This document shows, piece after piece, positions 53,798-64,000 of a DNA stretch of 64,000 bases. Position 1 is the first letter of the stretch, and every line of letters begins with the position of its first letter. Both the position numbers and the translations under genes were made by a program. This stretch comes from a virus. Its lineage: Duplodnaviria > Caudoviricetes. The stretch spans positions 1 to 64,000 of IMG/VR virus record IMGVR_UViG_2739368068_000001. One strand, given 5' to 3'. The notes beneath the pieces are model-generated. The model worked only from the letters and a program-made list of their open reading frames with translations, ran no database searches and had not been told where the DNA came from.

Positions 53798-54703
53798 TCA
53801 GGAACCGAGCGGGCCCCGGATCAGTACGGCGCGGTTCGCGTCGAGCGTCTTGCAGCCGTACAGCACGTCGATCGACACGACATCCTGCTTCTTGTCCATG
53901 TCGTACCCGTAGATCACCCGCAGGCCGTACCCCTTGTAGGACGCGATCGCGGCGTTCGACGCGCCACGCGGCAGCGCCAGGGGCCGCACCGCGAGCGCGA
54001 ACGCGGTCCGGTGGAACGCCACCCCGACCTCGGTGGTCGGAATCCCCGTGCCCGGCGTCGGGATCGTGATGTTATTCGTCTCGTACGGGTCGAACCCGTA
54101 CAGGCGACGGCCGAGCGACGCCTCTTGCAACCCCTGGGTGTCGCCCCGGGCGTCGGCCCGGCTGAGCAGGTCATTCTTGAGCCACTCCGCGGCCATCGTG
54201 GGGCCGACGACGGCGTACCGCTGCGACGGCGGAACGGACTGCTTCGTCAGTTCCCGGCCGGCGGCGACCATCGCCCGGGGGTCGTTCCACAACTCGCCGG
54301 AGGTGGTGCCGACGGTCGTCACGATGTCGGACCGCAGCGCCAGCAGGTCGCGATCGATCTTCTGCGAGATCGCTTCCATCGCCGGCGCGAGAAGCCGCTC
54401 AGAAAAGTCGGTGATCTTGAGCGTGAGATCTTCCGACGTCACCGCGAAAGAAACGTCGGCGAAGTGGTTGAGCGTCATCGGGATACCGGACTCGGTCGCG
54501 TCCTGGACCGTGATTCCGGCCGCCCGGTTGTACTCGTGCGCGACGAACCTCGCCGGCTTCCGGATCGTGATCGTGTCACCGACCGCGCCCGCAAAGGTGT
54601 CTTCGTAGTCGCGGTGCACGAGCGACGCCATGATGGTCGTCTCGTACAGGTTCGCCAGCGCAGCCTGAGCGATGACGTCAGGCGTGAGCAGGGTGTTTGC
54701 CAT
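53798..54703 (-). CDS. Major capsid protein (P22 coat-like family)
   Basis: MANTLLTPDVIA...RDYEDTF...GDTITIRKP...SIDVLYGCKTL. Confidence 0.9.
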   Translation of the reverse strand: MANTLLTPDVIAQAALANLYETTIMASLVHRDYEDTFAGAVGDTITIRKPARFVAHEYNRAAGITVQDATESGIPMTLNHFADVSFAVTSEDLTLKITDFSERLLAPAMEAISQKIDRDLLALRSDIVTTVGTTSGELWNDPRAMVAAGRELTKQSVPPSQRYAVVGPTMAAEWLKNDLLSRADARGDTQGLQEASLGRRLYGFDPYETNNITIPTPGTGIPTTEVGVAFHRTAFALAVRPLALPRGASNAAIASYKGYGLRVIYGYDMDKKQDVVSIDVLYGCKTLDANRAVLIRGPLGS

Positions 54704-54723: not shown

Positions 54724-55659
54724 TCAGCCCGGGCTGTCACTGCGTCGCTTGCGAAACTCAGCCCGGAAATCGTCGACGGTTGACGGTTCGGTGCTTTCCG
54801 CGCTGCTCCCGGCTGCGAAGTCGCCACCACTCGGGACCGGCGGCAGCACCGGGGGCGCCTGGCCCGCCGGCTGTTCCGCCTTGAAGTACGAATCGGTCTC
54901 GACAGCCGTCCCGATGGCTGCCGCGACCTTGGCCGCGAAATCCGGCGCGCTCGGGTCGAGCGAGTCGATTCCGCGCATGAATTGACGGCTGTCCGTCAGC
55001 CGTTTCGGATTCGCGCCGTGCTCCGACGCGTTCTGCCAAATCGCCAACTCCCGGGCCATCGCGACCCGGTCGGCGGTCTGGCTCGTGAGTTGATCCGTCA
55101 GGATCCGAATCTGTTCCTCCGGCGCCGGGCCGCTCTCGCCGTCGGTGTCGTCCGGCACGTCCGGCATGAGCCCGGTCGCCTTGAGCAGCGACGCGACCCA
55201 CTCCTGTCGCTGCTCCTCGAACCGCTGCGCGGCCCGCTCCTCGGCCGTCTTGGCCTCGACGCGACGGTCTCCGTTCTCGGTCCGCAACTGCTTGATGTAG
55301 TCGCGGATCTCGGCCGGGAACTCGTCGAGCGACCGCTCTGCCGGTGGCTTCGTGCCCCCGGCCGGCTGCGCGCCCGGTGGCGGCGTCACCGGTGCCTGGT
55401 TCGGTGCTGGCTCCTGAAAGAACGGCTGGAACACGCCGTCACCGGTGCCGGCCGGCGCGGATCCGGCCGCCCCGCCATCACCGCCGCCGCCGGTGCCGCT
55501 GGTGCCGCCGTCGCCGCCGGTGCCGCCGCCCGCGTCGCCGGCGGCCGGAGCCGGGGCGGCCGGGGCGGCCGGGGCGGAGTCGAGCGGCGGCGTCGCGAGC
55601 GGACACAGGTACGAGGCGACCGTGAGCCGGAGCAGCCGGGGACGCGTCAAGGTCTTCAT
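54724..55659 (-). CDS. Capsid scaffolding protein
   Basis: DYIKQLRTENGDRRV coiled coil and a C-terminal SGGDFAAG. Directly upstream of the capsid gene. Confidence 0.75.
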   Translation of the reverse strand: MKTLTRPRLLRLTVASYLCPLATPPLDSAPAAPAAPAPAAGDAGGGTGGDGGTSGTGGGGDGGAAGSAPAGTGDGVFQPFFQEPAPNQAPVTPPPGAQPAGGTKPPAERSLDEFPAEIRDYIKQLRTENGDRRVEAKTAEERAAQRFEEQRQEWVASLLKATGLMPDVPDDTDGESGPAPEEQIRILTDQLTSQTADRVAMARELAIWQNASEHGANPKRLTDSRQFMRGIDSLDPSAPDFAAKVAAAIGTAVETDSYFKAEQPAGQAPPVLPPVPSGGDFAAGSSAESTEPSTVDDFRAEFRKRRSDSPG

Positions 55660-55854
55660 GTGGAGTGCCCTCCCGGGGCGGATGGGCCGCGGCTCCCGGC
55701 CGGCGGCGTGCGGATACGACACAGCCCCGACCGGCCCGAATCGGGCCCGTCAGGGCTGTGTGTGCTCTTCCAGGGGTCGCAGGCCGGTGACCTGCGGATA
55801 TAAGTGACCTACCGGCCCGGAACCGGCCGTGACCGGCCGGGCCGCTCTACCCGG

Positions 55855-56085
55855 CTACTCGTCGACGTCGACCAGCTCGTCGAAATCGGTCTCCGGTGGC
55901 CGCCAATGGTGGTAGCCGCGTACCCACGCCGACGCGCGTAACCGCTCGGCCGGGTCACTGCTGGCCGGGTCGTACGGGCACGCCGTCAGCGGCAGTTGCC
56001 GGCGGGCGGCGTACCCGCCGGCGAGCCGGGCCGCTTCGGCCGTCAACGCGGCCGGCCTGGCCGGACCGGTCGGACCGATCGTCAT
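55855..56085 (-). CDS. Rmf/CrpP-like small protein
   Basis: GGYAARRQLPLTACPYD...AWVRGY resembles the G..A...CPY...W..GW/Y motif of ribosome modulation factor. Confidence 0.55.
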   Translation of the reverse strand: MTIGPTGPARPAALTAEAARLAGGYAARRQLPLTACPYDPASSDPAERLRASAWVRGYHHWRPPETDFDELVDVDE

Positions 56086-58493
56086 ACGAAGTCCCTTCCG
56101 GCCCCGGCGGCCAACCGTTCGTTACGAGCCCGACGGGCGCCGCCGGTGAGCTGCGCCTTGAACTCGGTGTAGGTCATGCGCGGGTGAGTCTCCCACCAGC
56201 GCAACAACTCCTCCGACGCGTACCGGCGTACCCGGTTGATCCCGCCGGAGAACAGGGCCCGGGGGTCGAACGCCTGAGCCCGGCCAGCAGGGGAGAGCAG
56301 GTGCCCCCGCGTCGCTGTCTCCGCCTCCAGGTATTGCAGGCTGACCCACTCGTCGTACTGGCGCCGGATCGCCGCGTCGGACAGCCGCCGGCCGCCGCTG
56401 CCGGCGGCGGCCTGCTCACGCTGCAACGTCTCGATGTCGAGATCATGCACCTCGGCGTACGCGTCCAGGTAGTCGCGGCCCTGGGCGAGCAGTTCGTTTA
56501 GCCGCTTGTCCTGCTCGGGAGTCGACTCCCGCCACTGCGTCGCGTGTTTCTTCTGGCGCGACGTCGTCCGGTCCGGCGGCCCGTACCGTTTATGGTCGTC
56601 CGGGTCGACGCCGTCCTCTTTCGCGAGCTGCCGAAACTCGGCGATCAGCGCGGGCGTCTTCAACGCGTCGGGGCGCTTGTCACCCCGGGACGCCGCGCCG
56701 GCCTCTCGCTGCAAGGTGGAATCCTCAATCTCGTCGGTGTAGGAGACGCCGTAGGCTCGCAGCATCGCCCGATAGACCCGGCGGGCGCTGGCCCGGTCCC
56801 CGTTCTCTGCGTCCTTTCGCGCCTGTTCCAGGATGATCGCCCACGCCTGGGCAGGCTTAGCGACGTCCGCAGGCGGTAGGGGACGCCGCATCGGCCCGAC
56901 CGACGGGTCATCCTCCGGCCCTCGTGCAATCGTTGACGGTGTCGGACCAAGGTCGGCGAATTCGCCAAGGTGGCGATACCACGCCAGATAAAGGGCGACC
57001 CGCTCAACCAGCGCCCGGGGATCGGCTTTCTCCGCTGCCCGAATCGCCTTCTCGTCGGCGTCGGCTGGTAACCCGAGGACCCGGCGCCGGGACTCGTCGA
57101 GCCGGCCGCGCATCTCTCCGTCTCGGGCCCCCGTCGGCCGGGCGGTGTAGAGCAGCAGCGTGTCAAACCACTCCATCGGGTTCCGCACCCGGACGGGCCC
57201 GCCCGGACCGGCGTTGCGGCGTGCCTCTCGGTCCGCTGCTATCGCGTTGCGGCGGTCCAGTTCGCCGCGCAACTGCGCCAGCCGCGTCGTCCGGTATTCC
57301 TCCTCATCCGGCGCAAGGTCGCGCTCCTCGACGGTCCGGATCGCGGCCGGGAGTTCGTCGTCGGCCAGGTCCCGCGCGGGTATGAACAGGGCCCGTCGGA
57401 GCCGCGCCTGTTCCGTTGCCCGGGCTTCCTCGGCCTCTCGGGCGGCCCGCCGGCGCTCAATCTCGTAGTTGACGTCTTTGGCCTCCTGGTCGCGCTCCCG
57501 CTGCGCCTGCGCGTATCCCTCCGGCCCCAACTCCCGGTAAAGCTGGCTCGGAAGGCTGCGATGCACGTACAAATTCGCGAATCGTGAATTCAGCTCGCGG
57601 TCGGTCAAATCCCGGAACCGGCGTTCACTCTGGGCGTCGCGGGCTTCCTTCTCACGACGGGCGTGCTCCGCGTACGCCTCCTCCTCCTCCTCCGCCGCCG
57701 CCCGCGCCGCCGCCTCGGCCGCCGCCCGCGCCCGGGCCTCTTCGGCCTCGGCGACCGCCCGCGCCTGCCGCTCGGCCTCCTCCCTCTCGGCCCGCTCGGC
57801 GGCCTCCCGGTCGCGGCGTTCCCACTCGACGTAGATCCGTTCCATCGCGGCCTCGTCGCCGAGCGTGGACGCCGCGTCAAGTCGCCGCTCCATGTCGGCG
57901 TCGTCGGTGGTCTCGTCGAACGGCCGATCGATGATCGCCCGTAGCCGCGCGTTCTGCGCGGCCCGTTCGGCGTCGCGGCGCCCCAGCTCGCCATCGAGTC
58001 GCATCAAGGCCGGCTCGTCGAGGTTGTTCATCCGCGACACGTCGGAGAACAGGGCCAACAGGTCGTCATCGCTGACCCCGGTCAGGTCGGCCGGGATCCG
58101 GGCGAGCACCGCGGCATCGTCGCGGCGACCCAGCTCGTCGGCGAGCCGGGCTAACGTCCGCTCGTCGACGGGGCCCGGCCGGTTCGTGACCTCCGATATC
58201 AGGGCTTGCACCCGCTCGTCGGACAGGCCGGTCAAGTCGTCAGGTACCCGGGGCGACTCGACCTGCGAGGCGACCACCCGCACCGGGTGTTCCCGGCGTT
58301 GCGCCGGCGTCGACGCCTCGGGGCGTACGTCGCGGCCGTCACGGCGCGCGGTCGATACCTGTACCTCCGCCATCCGGCTGACCCGGGAGCGCCGGTTGTG
58401 CCGGGCCGCGATTCCGTGCATCGCCCCCCGACACGCACAGGTACAGATCTCGTCGGTGGCTTCTGCGCATATCTTGCTGTGTTCCTCGGCCAC
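56082..58493 (-). CDS. Head-region protein C: Cys/His header, helical repeats and a conserved C-terminal domain
   Basis: HSKICAEATDEICTCACRGAMHGI. C-terminal TRGHLLSPAG...LFSG...ASEELLRWW. Confidence 0.75.
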   Translation of the reverse strand: MAEEHSKICAEATDEICTCACRGAMHGIAARHNRRSRVSRMAEVQVSTARRDGRDVRPEASTPAQRREHPVRVVASQVESPRVPDDLTGLSDERVQALISEVTNRPGPVDERTLARLADELGRRDDAAVLARIPADLTGVSDDDLLALFSDVSRMNNLDEPALMRLDGELGRRDAERAAQNARLRAIIDRPFDETTDDADMERRLDAASTLGDEAAMERIYVEWERRDREAAERAEREEAERQARAVAEAEEARARAAAEAAARAAAEEEEEAYAEHARREKEARDAQSERRFRDLTDRELNSRFANLYVHRSLPSQLYRELGPEGYAQAQRERDQEAKDVNYEIERRRAAREAEEARATEQARLRRALFIPARDLADDELPAAIRTVEERDLAPDEEEYRTTRLAQLRGELDRRNAIAADREARRNAGPGGPVRVRNPMEWFDTLLLYTARPTGARDGEMRGRLDESRRRVLGLPADADEKAIRAAEKADPRALVERVALYLAWYRHLGEFADLGPTPSTIARGPEDDPSVGPMRRPLPPADVAKPAQAWAIILEQARKDAENGDRASARRVYRAMLRAYGVSYTDEIEDSTLQREAGAASRGDKRPDALKTPALIAEFRQLAKEDGVDPDDHKRYGPPDRTTSRQKKHATQWRESTPEQDKRLNELLAQGRDYLDAYAEVHDLDIETLQREQAAAGSGGRRLSDAAIRRQYDEWVSLQYLEAETATRGHLLSPAGRAQAFDPRALFSGGINRVRRYASEELLRWWETHPRMTYTEFKAQLTGGARRARNERLAAGAGRDFV

Positions 58494-58499
58494 CGCCCG

Positions 58500-59870
58500 T
58501 TACCCCCCCGTTGTGCGATGCCGACGCCCGACGGGCGTCGGCATGATCGCGGCCTTACCTGTCAGGTCCGCGAGGACCGTCATCTGCGAGCCTCCAAGCC
58601 CGTCCGGGTATTCCGAGAGCTGGACTGATATCCGCCGGTCGAGGACCCGGCCACGGCGGCGGAGACTGACTTTCGATACGCCCTGGACGTAGCCGGTACC
58701 GCGCGTCGGTACCCCGTGCTGGTTGATGCCGCTGACGCGTACGTACATGCCCGGCGTCAGGTTGGTGACAGCTACCCGCTCCGGCTTCGGTAGACCCCCC
58801 GGCGGGGGTTTCCAGACCGTCACCGTCCGGTACCCGTAGGCCACTCCGGACACTGACGGCACGTTGGTGTCGACGCGGATCCAGCCGCCGGCGGCGAGTT
58901 GCTCGGGAGACACGGTGGACGACACACGGCCGATCAGGCGGCCCTGGTTGTCCGTGACTCGGCCGTCGGCGTCGACGTCGCCCCACCGGAACCCGAACGC
59001 GTCGTGCGTTATGTTTTCCCGGGCCTCCCGGGGTATCCCGCTCCCCTCCAGCCGCTTCGGGATCATGATCGATCCATTGGCGATGGCGCGGGCGACATCG
59101 GGATGCGTGTCGGGCACCGCCGCCCGCTCGGTCGCCTGCCGTGCGTCGTCCCGCTGCCCGATGTCGTCGAGCAGGGCCCGCCGCCGCGTCTCGCTCCGGA
59201 GAGCACGTAGCCGGCGAGCGATGTCCGGCACCGTGTCACGGCTCTCCAGCCCCGTCAGCCCCAGCGCGCCGACCTCCGCCGACGTGATGTCTCCCAGTTC
59301 TGGGTAGCGCGTCCGCAGCAGCGCCGCGAGGGAGTGATTCCCGGTCAGGTTGTCGTACTGCGCCTGCGTCTCGTCGACGAGCTGGCGGGCCCATCCGGCG
59401 CGGCTGTCGCCATCGGCCTGCCGGAGTGCCCGCATCAGCTCCACCGCGCCGTTACGGGCCCCGTTCCGGTCGCCCTGCTCCAGCGCGGCGGCCCAACGCC
59501 GGGCAGCGGCCTTCGTACCGGTCGGGAACCGCTCTGCGATCATGGCCCGCAACCGGGCTGCGCCTTCCGCCGGCAGCCGTGGCGCCGGGTCGTCGACAAC
59601 GGCCGGCGTCTCCGCCGGCTGCTGCCCTCCGGTGCTGGCCTTCCGCTGCTCGGTCTTCGTGCCGCCGCCCGGCGGCCGGCCGGTGCTGGCCCGCTCGACC
59701 CGGTGGTACCGCTTCCCGTCGCGGTTGACGGCCGTGACCCTGACGTCGTCCATGTTTCGGATCCGGCCGCCCTTGGTTCGGATCCCGTGCATCGTGCCGC
59801 CACAGTCGCAGTAGCAGTCGCCACCGTCTGCCTCTGCGCACTCGCGGCTGTGCGCTCCCTTGTCGGCCAC
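58500..59870 (-). CDS. Head-region protein B: Cys/His header and unknown domains
   Basis: HSRECAEADGGDCYCDCGGTMHGI. GAGGAGG RBS. Confidence 0.75.
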   Translation of the reverse strand: MADKGAHSRECAEADGGDCYCDCGGTMHGIRTKGGRIRNMDDVRVTAVNRDGKRYHRVERASTGRPPGGGTKTEQRKASTGGQQPAETPAVVDDPAPRLPAEGAARLRAMIAERFPTGTKAAARRWAAALEQGDRNGARNGAVELMRALRQADGDSRAGWARQLVDETQAQYDNLTGNHSLAALLRTRYPELGDITSAEVGALGLTGLESRDTVPDIARRLRALRSETRRRALLDDIGQRDDARQATERAAVPDTHPDVARAIANGSIMIPKRLEGSGIPREARENITHDAFGFRWGDVDADGRVTDNQGRLIGRVSSTVSPEQLAAGGWIRVDTNVPSVSGVAYGYRTVTVWKPPPGGLPKPERVAVTNLTPGMYVRVSGINQHGVPTRGTGYVQGVSKVSLRRRGRVLDRRISVQLSEYPDGLGGSQMTVLADLTGKAAIMPTPVGRRHRTTGG

Positions 59871-59905
59871 CGCCGGCCTCCTCGTGCTGTTGTCGGCGCA
59901 CGCGG

Positions 59906-59940
59906 AACAGCCGCCCCGCGCGGTGCGGGACGGCTGTTCG
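59906..59940. terminator. Hairpin within the head operon
   Basis: GAACAGCCG...CGGCTGTTC stem. Confidence 0.55.
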
Positions 59941-59957
59941 TGTGGTGGTACGGGCGC

Positions 59958-60239
59958 CTAGTGGACGACGGCCGCCCCGGCGGCGACCGGTGGTACCGGG
60001 ACCGGCGGCGGGGTGCCGGTCACGGTCAGCGGGCCGGGGATCAGGTGCCGGCCGGCGAGGTACAGCCACGTCTGGTCGTTGCTGCCCGTCGCGTCGTACT
60101 GCGGGCCGAGCGGTGTCATCGGTGCGGGGACCTGGTCGACGAGCCAGCCGGTAACCTCGGCGCCGGTCGTGGTGTCGGCATCCCACCGGCCGCCCCGGAA
60201 ATCGAGCCAACGACCGTCGCTGCCCTCAATTCGCCACAT
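59958..60239 (-). CDS. Small protein downstream of the peptidase-domain gene (immunity candidate)
   Basis: 93 aa. Overlaps the stop of protein A. Confidence 0.55.
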   Translation of the reverse strand: MWRIEGSDGRWLDFRGGRWDADTTTGAEVTGWLVDQVPAPMTPLGPQYDATGSNDQTWLYLAGRHLIPGPLTVTGTPPPVPVPPVAAGAAVVH

Positions 60240-61872
60240 GAGACGAATTGTATCCGAGTGTGAGTAGAGCGCCGATAACAAACTGCTGCAAATCATCGGA
60301 TCGGTCGAAATCGCGACGACGTGACCAGAGATCTTGCATGCCTACCTGGAATAGCTCCCACGGCACGTCGGCCGGATGGTCGGGTTTCCACCGTTCGTAC
60401 GTCTTACCTGCGTACGCGTTTGCCCATGTGTCCCTGAACCCGACTTCACGGTCTCCACTGTAAATCGGCGTCTGTCGTTCCAGTGTGACGCCGTCAGGGG
60501 CGGTCGACCTGCGACGAACCATTGTGAATTCAAGGTGCGTCAGACCAGGAATCGTCGCTTCCATCCGGTGCCCGAGTTCGTGCACGGTCACATCCCGCGC
60601 GTACCCGTCCGCGCCGGCGCCGTGCGCGCCGGCGTACCAACCGCCGACCCCCTGCGCCGGTACCCCCATCGTGTCGATCCCGGCGGAGTAGAACGCCCGT
60701 TCGGAGGCCACCAACCGCAACGGCCGCCGCGCGGCGGCCTGTAGCCACTCCGACGGGTAGAACTGTTCGGCGTCGGCCAGCGTGACCAGCGCGGTGACAC
60801 GTGCCCCGGTAGTCGGGACTCCGTCGACGTCCGTGATCCGCGACGCCTCTTCGTCCGTGGCCAGGGTTGCGCGGTGCCCCGGCCCGCCGAACGTCCGCGC
60901 AGACCCGAGCAACGCGGCCAAAATCTCCTGTTCCCGGCGTAGCGGAGCGAGTTTCGCTGCCTTCCACCGCTGGTGAGCGGCCGTCACATCAGGATGATCG
61001 GCCGGCAGCGTCTCCGACAGCCGCGACCAGGTGGCCCACGACTCCTCGTCGGCACGGCGGAGTCGCTGCCACTCAGGGTCGTTGTGCCATACCTTCCGCG
61101 CTTCGTCGAGGACCAGGCGGCCGACGTCGAGGACCGCATCGAGGTGCCGCTCATACTCTTCTGGCGGCAGCCGCACCGACAGTCCCGACGCGTCGTCACG
61201 ACCGGTCCGGTAGTGGTAGCTGGTCCGGTCGGCGGCCCGTTCCTCCTCCGTCCGCAGATAGTTACGGTTGTTCCTCAACGCCTCTTCGAGCGCTTCTATC
61301 CGCTGCTCGTACGGGCCGACCGACTGGGCAAACCAGCGTTCCCGGTCGGCCTTGCGAAGCCGCTGCCCCCGCCACTCGGCCTTGAACGCGGCGGCGGCCT
61401 GATCCCGGCGGGCCCGCTCGGCCGCGATCGCCGTCTCCAGCTCGGCGATCGCGGCGCGCAGCTCGGCGGCCCGCGCGACCGCCCGCCGGTCGACCCGCAG
61501 CGGCGCATCCCATTCGCCGCTAGTCTTCGGCAGGCCGGCCCGGACGCGGGCGATCGTTTCCCGCACCCCGTCCGGCAGCGTCGGCGCTTCCGGCGTCGTC
61601 GACCGGCTGACGGTCACCGAGGGTGCCCGGCGAAGCGCCTGCCGCCGCTCGGTCAGGGTGCCGCCGCCGGGCGGTAGCCCGTCGTCCCGGCGGACTCGCC
61701 ACCGCCGGCGGGTACCGGTTCCGATCGCGATGATCTGTACGTCCGCCATGCGGCGGAGCCGGCCGGACAGGTGTCGAATGCCGTGCATGGTGCCCTTGCA
61801 CTGGCAGTGACACACCCCGCCATCGGCGTTGGCGCACTCCTCGCTGTGCGGTCCGGCATCGGCCACGTCCAC
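60226..61872 (-). CDS. Head-region protein A: Cys/His header and a C-terminal zincin-like (HExxH) domain
   Basis: HSEECANADGGVCHCQCKGTMHGI. VTVHELGHRME...YAGKTY...WELFQVG. Confidence 0.75.
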   Translation of the reverse strand: MDVADAGPHSEECANADGGVCHCQCKGTMHGIRHLSGRLRRMADVQIIAIGTGTRRRWRVRRDDGLPPGGGTLTERRQALRRAPSVTVSRSTTPEAPTLPDGVRETIARVRAGLPKTSGEWDAPLRVDRRAVARAAELRAAIAELETAIAAERARRDQAAAAFKAEWRGQRLRKADRERWFAQSVGPYEQRIEALEEALRNNRNYLRTEEERAADRTSYHYRTGRDDASGLSVRLPPEEYERHLDAVLDVGRLVLDEARKVWHNDPEWQRLRRADEESWATWSRLSETLPADHPDVTAAHQRWKAAKLAPLRREQEILAALLGSARTFGGPGHRATLATDEEASRITDVDGVPTTGARVTALVTLADAEQFYPSEWLQAAARRPLRLVASERAFYSAGIDTMGVPAQGVGGWYAGAHGAGADGYARDVTVHELGHRMEATIPGLTHLEFTMVRRRSTAPDGVTLERQTPIYSGDREVGFRDTWANAYAGKTYERWKPDHPADVPWELFQVGMQDLWSRRRDFDRSDDLQQFVIGALLTLGYNSSHVAN

Positions 61873-61881
61873 CGCCCCCTG

Positions 61882-63039
61882 TCATGATCGGCTCGCCGGG
61901 ACGGCGGCCGGTGGAATGTGTCCGGCGCCGATCTCCTCTCGGTACCGGAGCCGGGTCAACTGGTGCTCGTCGACGTGCCGCACGATCGCGGCCGTCCACT
62001 CGGCGACCCGGGCCGCCGCCGCCCGCCGGCCCTGCTCGGTCAGCGCCGAGACTTCGCGCTCCCGCCAGTGCCGTATGTGGCGCTCGATCTCTCGCTGCCG
62101 GGTCCGGGCCGCCTCGCCGGCCGGGTCCGCGGTCCGGCCGGTCCGGAGCAGGATCGACACCCCGGGCAGGTAGCGGCGGATCGTGTGCCGGCATCGCGGG
62201 TGCAGCAGCCCAGCGGCGGTCGCCTCGTCGAGCGTGGCCACGACGTTGACGGGCACCAGGGCGCCGGTACGGGCGTGCGGTGCCATCTGCTGGCCGGTGG
62301 GGCCCCACAGCGCGAGAATCCGATGCTCGTAGGGGCGGCAGCGCCAGCATTCGCCGGGCTGGTCGTCGACGGACACGAGCCGGATCCCGGCGGCGGTGAT
62401 CTCGTCGGCCTGGCCAAGCACGGTCGCGCGGTGTACGGCGGTCTGCGCGGCCATCTCGACGTACGTGTGGAGGCGCCAGCGGCGGCCGGCGGTGTCGGTG
62501 TAGCCGGTGACGCCCCGGTCGACCAGCTCGGCCCATGCGGCCTGGGCGGCCTCGCGTTGGGTGGTGGCGCCGGTCAGCCTGCGGGCCGCCGCGTTGGTGA
62601 TCGCCCGCCGGTACGCGGTGTCGACCTGCGGCAGGATCGCCGCGTGCAGCGGCCGGAGTTCGCTGACCATGGCGTCGGCAAGGGCTTGGATTGCTTGCGC
62701 GGCGCGGCGTTCGGCCTGCCCGGCGGGGCGGGGCGCGGTGCGGTCGGTGAGGTGCTCGGCGAGGTCCGCGACGGCGTCAGCGCGGCCGGCGCGGTAGCCG
62801 GCGGCGATCGCTGCCCGGGCCCGGGCGGCGCCGGCGGCGGCGAGCTGCGCGGCGATCGCCGTGGTGGCGCGGTGTAGCGCGCCGATGCTTTCCAGTCGGC
62901 GGGCCTGCCAGTCGGTGCGGTCGAGTCCGACAGCGAGTCGGGCCCGGATCGTTTGCAGGAGCGCCGTTTCACCTTCGCGGTAGACGTGGGCGACGGCGGC
63001 GGCGAGCTGGTCGACGCGGCGTGGGTCGACCGCCACCAC
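61882..63039 (-). CDS. Phage minor capsid protein (MuF-like)
   Basis: GYTDTAGRRWRLHTYVEMA, ECWRCRPYE, GLLHPRCRH and QREIERHIRHW. No C-terminal extension. Confidence 0.88.
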   Translation of the reverse strand: MVAVDPRRVDQLAAAVAHVYREGETALLQTIRARLAVGLDRTDWQARRLESIGALHRATTAIAAQLAAAGAARARAAIAAGYRAGRADAVADLAEHLTDRTAPRPAGQAERRAAQAIQALADAMVSELRPLHAAILPQVDTAYRRAITNAAARRLTGATTQREAAQAAWAELVDRGVTGYTDTAGRRWRLHTYVEMAAQTAVHRATVLGQADEITAAGIRLVSVDDQPGECWRCRPYEHRILALWGPTGQQMAPHARTGALVPVNVVATLDEATAAGLLHPRCRHTIRRYLPGVSILLRTGRTADPAGEAARTRQREIERHIRHWREREVSALTEQGRRAAAARVAEWTAAIVRHVDEHQLTRLRYREEIGAGHIPPAAVPASRS

Positions 63040-63048
63040 AACCCCCTA

Positions 63049-63079
63049 AACTTTGGTAAACATGATGTTGACTAAAGAT
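63049..63079. promoter_or_regulatory. 31-bp dyad site 11 and plus-strand moron promoter
   Basis: AACTTTGGTAAA-CATGATG-TTGACTAAAGAT. Plus strand TTGACT-N17-TAGTTT. Confidence 0.85.
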
Positions 63080-63145
63080 GTTTGGGCGGCTAGTTTGATC
63101 TCTGGTCGGGTTGCTGGATCCGACCCCCGAACCGGAGGAACCCCG

Positions 63146-64000
63146 ATGCCGCACACCGCCCCGGCCGCACCCGCCGCCCGCGCCACCTGGAAGAACCACG
63201 GCCGCCCGGCCGCCGGCTTCTACTTCGGCAACGGCGCTGCCCCGGTCGGCTCAGGCCGGCTGGTGACGGTGCGGGCGGTCGGCTCCGTCGAGATCTTCGA
63301 CGCGACCACCGGCGAGCGGATCGCCGAGCACAGCACCCGGGCGATGTGGTGGTACGCCCCGGCCGCCGAGATCACCGGCGGGGACCTGGACCGCGCCCGG
63401 GTCGGCGCCGCGCACACCGAAGCGCGGCACATCGCCGAGTATCGGCGGATCACCAGCGACCGCACCGACCCGACCGACTCCCTGCTGTACCTCTCCCTCG
63501 TCGCCGACCAGCACCAGGCCGCGCAGCGTGGACACGGCGCGCTGGCGCTCGCGCTCGCCGAGCGAGTCGCCGCGCTCCGGCCGGCGCACGAGGCCGACGA
63601 GGCCGAGCGGGCCCGGGCGCTGGCCGAGCAGCGGGCCCGGGTCATCGCCACGCGGGCCGCTGAGGCCGGGCCGGACGAGGTTGTGATCGTGCCGTGCGGC
63701 GGGAAGAAGCTCGACGAGGCGGCGCCGGCCGGGGAGATCTACACCGGCAGCTACCACGCCGCGTGCCGGCGGGCCGCCGCCGCCCGGGGCGGCCGGCTGT
63801 TCATCCTCTCCGCCCTCCACGGGCTGCTCGACCCCGCCACGGTGATCGAGCCGTACGACCTGCGGATGGGTCAGCCCGGAAGCGTCACCCCGCGCCAGGT
63901 GCGCGACCAGGCCGGCGCGCTCGGCATCCTCGGCGCCCGGGTGACCGTGCTAGCCGGACGCGCGTACGCGGACGTCGTCCGGGCGGTCTGGCCGGACGCC
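63146..64000 (+). CDS. Moron gene with a DUF6884 (YaaA-like) C-terminal domain, runs off the window
   Basis: GGAGG RBS. Hand translation gives VIVPCGGKK...AGEIYTGSYH...LFILSALHGLL...IEPYDLRM. Confidence 0.75.
   Translation, partial: MPHTAPAAPAARATWKNHGRPAAGFYFGNGAAPVGSGRLVTVRAVGSVEIFDATTGERIAEHSTRAMWWYAPAAEITGGDLDRARVGAAHTEARHIAEYRRITSDRTDPTDSLLYLSLVADQHQAAQRGHGALALALAERVAALRPAHEADEAERARALAEQRARVIATRAAEAGPDEVVIVPCGGKKLDEAAPAGEIYTGSYHAACRRAAAARGGRLFILSALHGLLDPATVIEPYDLRMGQPGSVTPRQVRDQAGALGILGARVTVLAGRAYADVVRAVWPDA

Follow-up and report, generated by a model that had tools for sequence, protein, structure and literature searches.

A Cys/His header shared by tandem genes behind a short MuF gene, a candidate trans-acting substitute for the covalent MuF carrier in phage heads

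We analysed three consecutive genes, here called A, B and C, in the head module of an uncultured phage, together with the N-terminal Cys/His header that they have in common. The stretch of DNA analysed (the window) comprises positions 1-64,000 of the 83,115-bp IMG/VR virus record IMGVR_UViG_2739368068_000001, which is 96% complete, and its G+C content is approximately 71%. All three genes are encoded on the minus strand. Gene A (60226..61872, 548 amino acids [aa]) consists of the header (approximately residues 1-83), a long helical/coiled-coil region and a C-terminal HExxH zincin-like domain. Gene B (58500..59870, 456 aa) carries its header (59631-59870) on an orphan body. In gene C (56082..58493, 803 aa), the header (approximately 58323-58493) is followed by helical repeats and a C-terminal domain, C-dom (approximately 56085-56576). 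The original prediction for this locus, three tandem genes with one Cys/His header, was borne out by translation of these open reading frames (ORFs), as the first 30 residues of A, B and C all contain H-x3-C-x2-A-x4-C-x-C-x-C-x-G-x2-H-G. The back-translated motif occurred three times in the window and not once in 100 dinucleotide-preserving shuffles. When the first 80 residues of A were used as the query, B was recovered with an E value of 2.8e-25 and C with 4.3e-9, and no fourth copy of the header was found in the whole record.

The translation start of A is most likely the second GTG, at 61866, judging from the resulting MADAGPHS, which parallels MADKGAHS of B. The header of A (61627..61866) is made up of a Cys4His2 knuckle, a basic hairpin, PPGGGT and a helix, according to the alignment and an AlphaFold2 model. 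We call this arrangement, which is shared by B, type 1. In the type 2 header of C, the knuckle is followed by RM.EV.V. The continuation motif expected after the knuckle was present in all three proteins, although its spacing is R-x3-M-x-[DE]-V-x-[VI] and not R..M. The stretch PPGGGT.TE.R.A is common to A and B only, as expected. A header of about 80 residues, as first described, applies to A and B, whereas that of C comprises only about the first 57 residues. Beyond the header, all-against-all BLAST confirmed that the C-termini are unrelated: the bodies of A and B match neither each other nor the body of C. At the DNA level, the mean column identity of the header copies was only about 70% and many third positions differed, indicating that the header is a conserved protein module under selection and not a recent DNA repeat. 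Each header gene is preceded by its own G-rich ribosome-binding site.

The assignments by Pfam and PHROGs gave the minus-strand gene order portal, plus-strand cassette, MuF, A, A', B, C, small gene, scaffold-like gene and coat, which places A, B and C between the minor capsid gene and the scaffold gene, where they had been predicted to lie. The block contains, in addition to the three header genes, two conserved small genes that had not been mentioned, namely A' (59958..60239) after A and a 76-aa gene (55855..56085) after C. The MuF-type minor capsid gene (61882..63039, minus strand) encodes 385 aa and matches Pfam Phage_min_cap2 (PF06152) with an E value of 2.2e-54 and 185.2 bits (cut-off 26.3). 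The match runs over profile positions 2-366 of 366 and is thus full-length. The same protein covers only positions 3-376 of the 745-position family phrog_12049. The MuF is therefore short, and the claim that it has no C-terminal extension stands.

We considered whether A, B and C are independent genes at all, or whether they represent alternative C-termini that stop-codon read-through adds to MuF, or orphan cassettes that recombine into the MuF gene. The junctions MuF|A (TGA, 61870-61884), A'|B (TAG, 59958-59870) and B|C (TAA, 58491-58502) are all in frame, as such a scheme would demand; three in-frame junctions arise by chance about once in 27 cases, and their state here is probably due to chance. 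In the closest relative, L013, the junction frames are not the same, and MuF and the A-type gene are set apart by an additional gene of 71 aa. One of the stops in the window is TAA, and each of the header genes is equipped with a ribosome-binding site and a start codon of its own. The scheme is further disfavoured by the 3' end of the MuF gene, which has no header-like sequence, and by the divergence of the header DNA copies. On the grounds of the L013 frames, the TAA stop and the separate start signals, we rejected both versions and regard a dependence on MuF of either kind as very remote. A split intein was likewise rejected, since the MuF has no N-intein-like end and the header no C-intein motif on reading the sequence.

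To describe the header as a family, a profile of the three copies was searched against 1.84 billion representative proteins at a threshold of E <= 1e-3. The search returned 35 further protein clusters of 47 to 1503 aa, and in 35 of 35 the header starts within residues 1-13. Across the 38 sequences, conservation is complete or almost complete for the series H, C, C, C, C, H and for an Ala and two Gly, which upholds the four Cys and two His first noticed in the window. BLAST clustering of the parts behind the header gave at least nine body groups: the A-type zincin, B alone, a C-dom group linked to a second C-terminal module, an ATLF group, an ADPrib_exo_Tox protein and four singletons. Two of the bodies were recognised by Pfam, one protein as ADPrib_exo_Tox (E 2.1e-27; VIP2-like) and another type as ATLF (E 1.8e-9; a lethal-factor-like zincin), and no Pfam family covered the header in the proteins scanned. 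The gene neighbourhoods were mostly head modules, with the header gene directly behind a short MuF. The header is thus reusable, as had been proposed, and it constitutes a previously undescribed N-terminal domain family.

A degenerate pattern derived from the three-row header alignment, run on viral contigs, and a word-index search with the header of A both recovered only the protein of the window itself, and the family came to light in the exhaustive profile search and with a DNA pattern made by hand. Four of five matches of an earlier, shorter DNA pattern were spurious short ORFs. The AlphaFold2 model of the header, built on an 18-row alignment, was of moderate quality (mean predicted local distance difference test score [pLDDT] 75) and showed a short helix, the knuckle, the hairpin and a helix. 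No fold match to this model was found in PDB (best Foldseek E 2.2, best VIA Z 2.2) or BFVD (best E 0.54).

The most informative relatives were proteins that carry the same bodies on a different N-terminus. An alignment built from A-type proteins brought up four Streptomyces proteins of 821-836 aa that are named 'phage minor capsid proteins'. In one of them, the 826-aa protein P0047 of Streptomyces althioticus, residues 1-367 match the MuF of the phage in the window (37% identity, E 1e-64) and residues 401-826 match residues 84-539 of A (35% identity, E 7e-51). In these Streptomyces prophage proteins, the body of A is fused behind a Phage_min_cap2 MuF domain and is accompanied by the small partner gene. 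The P0047 locus has the order terminase, portal, MuF-zincin, 68-aa gene, scaffold-like and coat-like; its coat is 52% and its portal 42% identical to those of the phage studied here. A second case is the header protein P0030, whose ADP-ribosyltransferase body matches fusions of MuF or head protein with VIP2 in 119 actinophage records; MuF-VIP2 fusions have been described in the Microbacterium phages Percival and Goodman (PMC7302621).

The third case is gene C. Its C-dom matches positions 619-730 of phrog_12049 (E 2.8e-16), the family of which the short MuF covers the front part. The last approximately 150 residues of C match 187 phage records from Mycobacterium, Streptomyces and Microbacterium phages, and the C-termini of MuF-like genes are among the matches listed. 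The comparison with gp4 of Streptomyces phage SV1 (665 aa) gave E 3e-17 for C-dom, and residues 58-175 of C (STPAQRREHPVRV...) match the linker of SV1 gp4 (residues 375-496, E 1e-5), which starts exactly where the MuF domain ends. By this comparison, C is to be read as the detached conserved C-terminal half of a long MuF and not as an effector. C-dom was modelled as an all-helical domain with a pLDDT above 90, and the type 2 header in the same model reached only about 40. A fold search with a C-type model gave helical-hairpin matches only, with Z <= 5.1, and was uninformative. The role of C-dom is probably morphogenetic.

Three bodies, the zincin of A, the tail of C and the ADP-ribosyltransferase, thus occur either behind MuF or behind the header, and the header stands where the covalent MuF stands elsewhere. 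No Cys/His header is present in SV1 gp4 or Vondra gp5, nor does the header motif occur in the loci of SV1, Vondra and S. althioticus. A long MuF characterises the relatives without header genes (SV1, Vondra and L080); where header genes follow, the MuF measures 385-399 aa, as observed in the phage of the window (G000), L013, L077 and L078, and by alignment in G002 and L023. In these six independent contigs, the header genes come directly after the short MuF. The order is MuF, 71-aa gene, A-type, 94-aa gene, 1144-aa header protein, C-type, small gene, scaffold and coat in L013; MuF, A-type, 91-aa gene, 1079-aa C-type and small gene in L077; MuF and header-ATLF in L078; MuF and C-type in G002; and MuF, C-type, scaffold and coat in L023. 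Header copies also occur near the portal, in G002 between terminase and portal and in L012 shortly after the portal among antisense genes, and the portals of these two phages are 58-63% identical to that of the phage studied here. Judged from these alignments, the bodies of A, C and the ADP-ribosyltransferase relative are MuF cargo turned into separate genes. The proposal that the cargo is present here as separate proteins holds to that extent, except that C is not an effector.

Tandem, that is consecutive, header genes are frequent in the relatives. On L014 (140-6551), a 1503-aa header protein is followed by an A-like header protein. A second header gene was seen upstream of the portal in L012 (L012:24-55) and at the contig end in L078 (L078:6607-6638). 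The L023 contig was binned as a Burkholderiaceae metagenome-assembled genome (MAG); its coat is 74% identical to that of the window, and the contig is probably mis-binned actinophage DNA.

The HExxH motif of A (residues 431-435, 60568..60582 on the minus strand) lies in its C-terminal domain. H431, E432 and H435, together with the whole of HELGHRME and its flanks, are invariant in five relatives, and conserved Glu residues occur downstream. No sequence match of A to any zincin family was found in Pfam or PDB, where only coiled-coil noise was obtained, and the body of A could not be aligned with ATLF-type zincins in a profile comparison. The zincin-like protein may act as an effector that is injected or as a protease associated with the head. 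The start of the following gene, A' (93 aa, minus strand), overlaps the stop of A by 14 nucleotides. Its relatives are the 94-aa gene after the A-type gene in L013 (54% identical) and the 91-aa gene in L077, and A' also matches the 68-aa gene behind the MuF-zincin fusion P0047. A' therefore accompanies the zincin body in the split and the MuF-fused forms alike, and it could encode an immunity protein, an inhibitor or a chaperone. A GC-rich 13-bp hairpin was read from the sequence between A' and B (59907..59937, minus strand); because it has no T tract, it was missed by the consensus terminator scan. Scanning the block for consensus promoters and terminators gave nothing informative.

No relatives of the B body were found in phage genomes, in an index of 5.8 billion proteins or in the ESM Atlas, and no small gene follows B. 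The slot of B is the most variable of the block, being occupied by the orphan here and by different header proteins of 1144 aa in L013 and 1503 aa in L014. The small 76-aa gene after C (minus strand) overlaps the C stop. It is a homologue of SV1 gp5 (E 3e-8), belongs with phrog_13106 and is homologous to the small genes that follow the C-type genes in L013 and L077. Since gp5 follows the long MuF in SV1, this type of small gene also follows non-toxic long MuFs. An assignment as ribosome modulation factor was rejected (Pfam RMF 18.7 bits against a cut-off of 27.9 bits). None of A, A', B, C and the small gene after C matched a PADLOC defence family.

The remaining genes of the head module are of conventional types. 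The portal gene lies just beyond the window end on the minus strand (phrog_533, E 3.9e-98). The scaffold-like gene (54724..55722, minus strand) matches phrog_8952 (E 1.2e-26) and, weakly, the scaffolding family phrog_233, and is syntenic in L013, L023, L077 and L080. The major capsid protein gene (53798..54703, minus strand) is of the P22-coat type (Pfam P22_CoatProtein, E 3.9e-37). Plus-strand genes (63040-64000 of the window and L016:1-2000) are wedged between the minus-strand portal and MuF genes, and antisense gene blocks are also scattered across the terminase-portal-MuF region of the relatives L012, L015 and L078.

Given the alternation of header and MuF on the same bodies, we propose that the header replaces the covalent MuF carrier in trans, serving as an adaptor for the incorporation of multiple cargo proteins into the head. 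We assign this reading a probability of roughly 0.55. The MuF of this phage clade would have been cut back to its core, and its former extensions would have become separate genes: the zincin with its small partner and the C-dom tail in the present phage, and a lethal-factor-like zincin and a VIP2-like ADP-ribosyltransferase in its relatives. The header of 55-80 residues, with its Cys4His2 knuckle and basic beta-hairpin, would be a metal-stabilised N-terminal adaptor. It would do non-covalently what the covalent MuF link does elsewhere, bringing the protein to the portal, MuF or scaffold region of the assembling procapsid, where its docking partner presumably lies. In this way, several different proteins may be incorporated into the virion, leave later with the DNA and be delivered to the next host.

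The same position behind MuF could also be a relic of gene fission, with the header serving as an oligomerisation or control module that keeps toxic bodies inactive or assembles a complex and has no part in targeting. The header is always N-terminal and occurs on would-be toxic enzymes (the ADP-ribosyltransferase and the zincins), and small metal-dependent domains often mediate self-association. We consider this explanation improbable, because the header is also found on C-dom, a conserved non-enzymatic helical domain, and on orphan bodies, and because A already has a dedicated small partner, A', for possible control or immunity.

Several observations weigh against the adaptor reading. The first comes from G001, a complete 106-kb phage with terminal repeats. 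Its short header-C-dom gene occupies the place usual for MuF, following the portal and preceding the protease/scaffold-like and coat genes, and no MuF was detected in this phage by PF06152, by PF04233 or by similarity to the MuF of the window. It follows that MuF cannot be the obligatory dock and that the header is not a simple MuF-docking peg; in G001, the header may replace MuF functionally or bind another component. The second concerns the distribution of the motif. A DNA-pattern scan for the 24-residue core of the header over 185,579 species genomes gave 55 matches, of which a few lie in short or stop-broken ORFs and resemble chance hits. In nearly all, the motif lies no more than about 25 residues from the predicted N-terminus. 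Forty of the approximately 48 longer matches belong to one fixed helical chromosomal family of 260-312 aa, outside head operons. The core also heads a plasmid protein of Persicobacter (Bacteroidota) with a P-loop nucleoside triphosphatase motif in its sequence (L070) and a 164-aa protein that lies beside methyltransferase and HNH endonuclease genes, in the DNA-metabolism region of a complete 45-kb phage (L076). Furthermore, Arg and Lys abound in the 30-50 residues that follow the knuckle, a stretch that fits nucleic-acid binding equally well. Finally, the zincin of A could be a morphogenetic protease instead of an injected effector, and an effector role is conjectural for B and C-dom, which concern two of the three genes in the window.

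The hosts of the 260-312-aa family are 40 actinobacterial genomes, mainly Actinomadura, Spirillospora, Streptosporangium and Microbacterium (e.g. L024:901-1830). Its four members scanned had no Pfam match; the family has no conserved neighbour, and no head genes were found within 8 kb. The family has the 24-residue core only and is without the hairpin or PPGGGT part. A header found mostly outside head operons on one fixed architecture had been named in the original prediction as the pattern that would speak against it; this is the pattern of the 24-residue core, and it is not that of the full header of 55-80 aa. Outside the actinobacteria, the core also heads 510-aa proteins in MAGs of Lentisphaerae and Verrucomicrobia (L046/L069) and small archaeal ORFs. 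The phage headers and the chromosomal family were matched to each other by hhalign (probability 97%), but because the motif had served to choose both sets, this match is circular and was set aside as independent evidence of homology.

We made three side observations on these loci. The third-codon-position G+C of the genes of the 260-312-aa family is below that of the flanking genes in several loci. In a Lapillicoccus genome (L061:3808-7986), a gene of the knuckle family lies directly downstream of a 1105-aa helicase that matches Mokosh MkoC (PADLOC, E 7e-52). In the C-type header gene of G001 (L007:7026-7028), the Trp codon (TGG) present in all relatives is replaced by an in-frame TAG, and the frame continues into C-dom; this could reflect a nonsense mutation, a sequencing error or suppression.

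The observations on the core count in favour of the main rival explanation, in which the header would act not as a capsid address but as a small zinc knuckle of general use, its ligand being nucleic acid or something equally generic; the proteins would act in the producing cell or be co-packaged by sticking to DNA. The N-terminal position of the core on many non-head proteins (the chromosomal family at 40 loci, the plasmid P-loop protein and the small phage protein), the basic residues after the knuckle and the use of a header without MuF in G001 all agree with it. It does not account, however, for the alternation of header and MuF on three different bodies or for the grouping of header genes immediately after a short MuF in six contigs. 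The header model matched no known nucleic-acid-binding fold, and DNA binding and packaging are not mutually exclusive. We judge this explanation unlikely, although less so than a control module. A wider proposal goes further: the header alone may be a portable, zinc-dependent N-terminal address that loads any fused protein into the capsids of these siphophages for injection, in a natural system for multiple cargoes that arose as a replacement for the covalent MuF carrier. Chromosomal and plasmid proteins of several phyla would have taken up its 24-residue core, an ancient N-terminal knuckle for docking. We put this forward tentatively, as it is more doubtful than the adaptor reading itself.

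An N-terminal tag for the capsid has a precedent in phage T4, where the tag is a peptide some 10 residues long, the prohead protease cuts it off, and the tagged proteins end inside the capsid and are injected. Like this capsid targeting sequence, which is carried by the internal proteins and Alt (reviewed in PMC3012670), the header is a portable N-terminal element on unrelated proteins. It differs in being a Cys/His domain of 55-80 residues with no sequence similarity to the T4 tag, and no prohead protease was recognisable in the head module by Pfam or PHROGs.

The closest systems are the MuF polymorphic toxins (Jamet et al. 2017, PMC5576092). They share with the header genes the place in the head module near the portal, the kinds of variable bodies (ADP-ribosyltransferase and metallopeptidase) and the principle of a constant N-terminal carrier with variable C-termini, realised here as one header on at least nine body groups. 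Small ORFs downstream of MuF toxins have been reported (PMC5576092), and A' after A is similar. In MuF toxins, however, the MuF domain is part of the same polypeptide, whereas no MuF domain was found in A, B and C by Pfam or PHROGs and the MuF is a separate 385-aa gene. Here the Cys4His2 header replaces the MuF domain, and several header genes stand in tandem behind one short MuF. A comparable logic applies to the polyvalent proteins of phages and conjugative elements (Iyer et al. 2017, PMC5512222), whose effector domains, zincin peptidases and ADP-ribosyltransferases among them, are often linked to MuF or portal and are presumed to be taken into the head and to be delivered together with the DNA. 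Polyvalent proteins carry many domains per polypeptide, in contrast to the one body per gene with a shared N-terminal module observed here, and neither 'MPTase-PolyVal' nor any other polyvalent-protein family of PMC5512222 was matched by Pfam in the proteins scanned. According to work cited in PMC5576092, the MuF-family protein gp7 of SPP1 binds to the portal, and each capsid contains 1-2 copies of it. The header would either assume this role or connect to it; gp7 itself has neither cargo nor a Cys/His header. We conclude that A, B and C are a variant of the MuF polymorphic-toxin and polyvalent cargo systems and not strict members, because the defining MuF domain on the same polypeptide is absent. 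The original interpretation of the locus is thus borne out in part.

Until now, MuF-borne toxins and polyvalent proteins have been viewed as cargo that is joined to a head protein by a covalent link. If the adaptor reading is true, one phage would load several proteins at once and could swap them gene by gene, and the slot of B shows such swapping. The addressing of non-structural proteins to siphophage capsids would become testable by means of a defined element of 55-80 residues, and the header would provide a compact tag for placing foreign proteins in phage heads, for use in actinobacterial systems. Whatever the mechanism, the header is an undescribed domain family whose core motif reaches far beyond phages.

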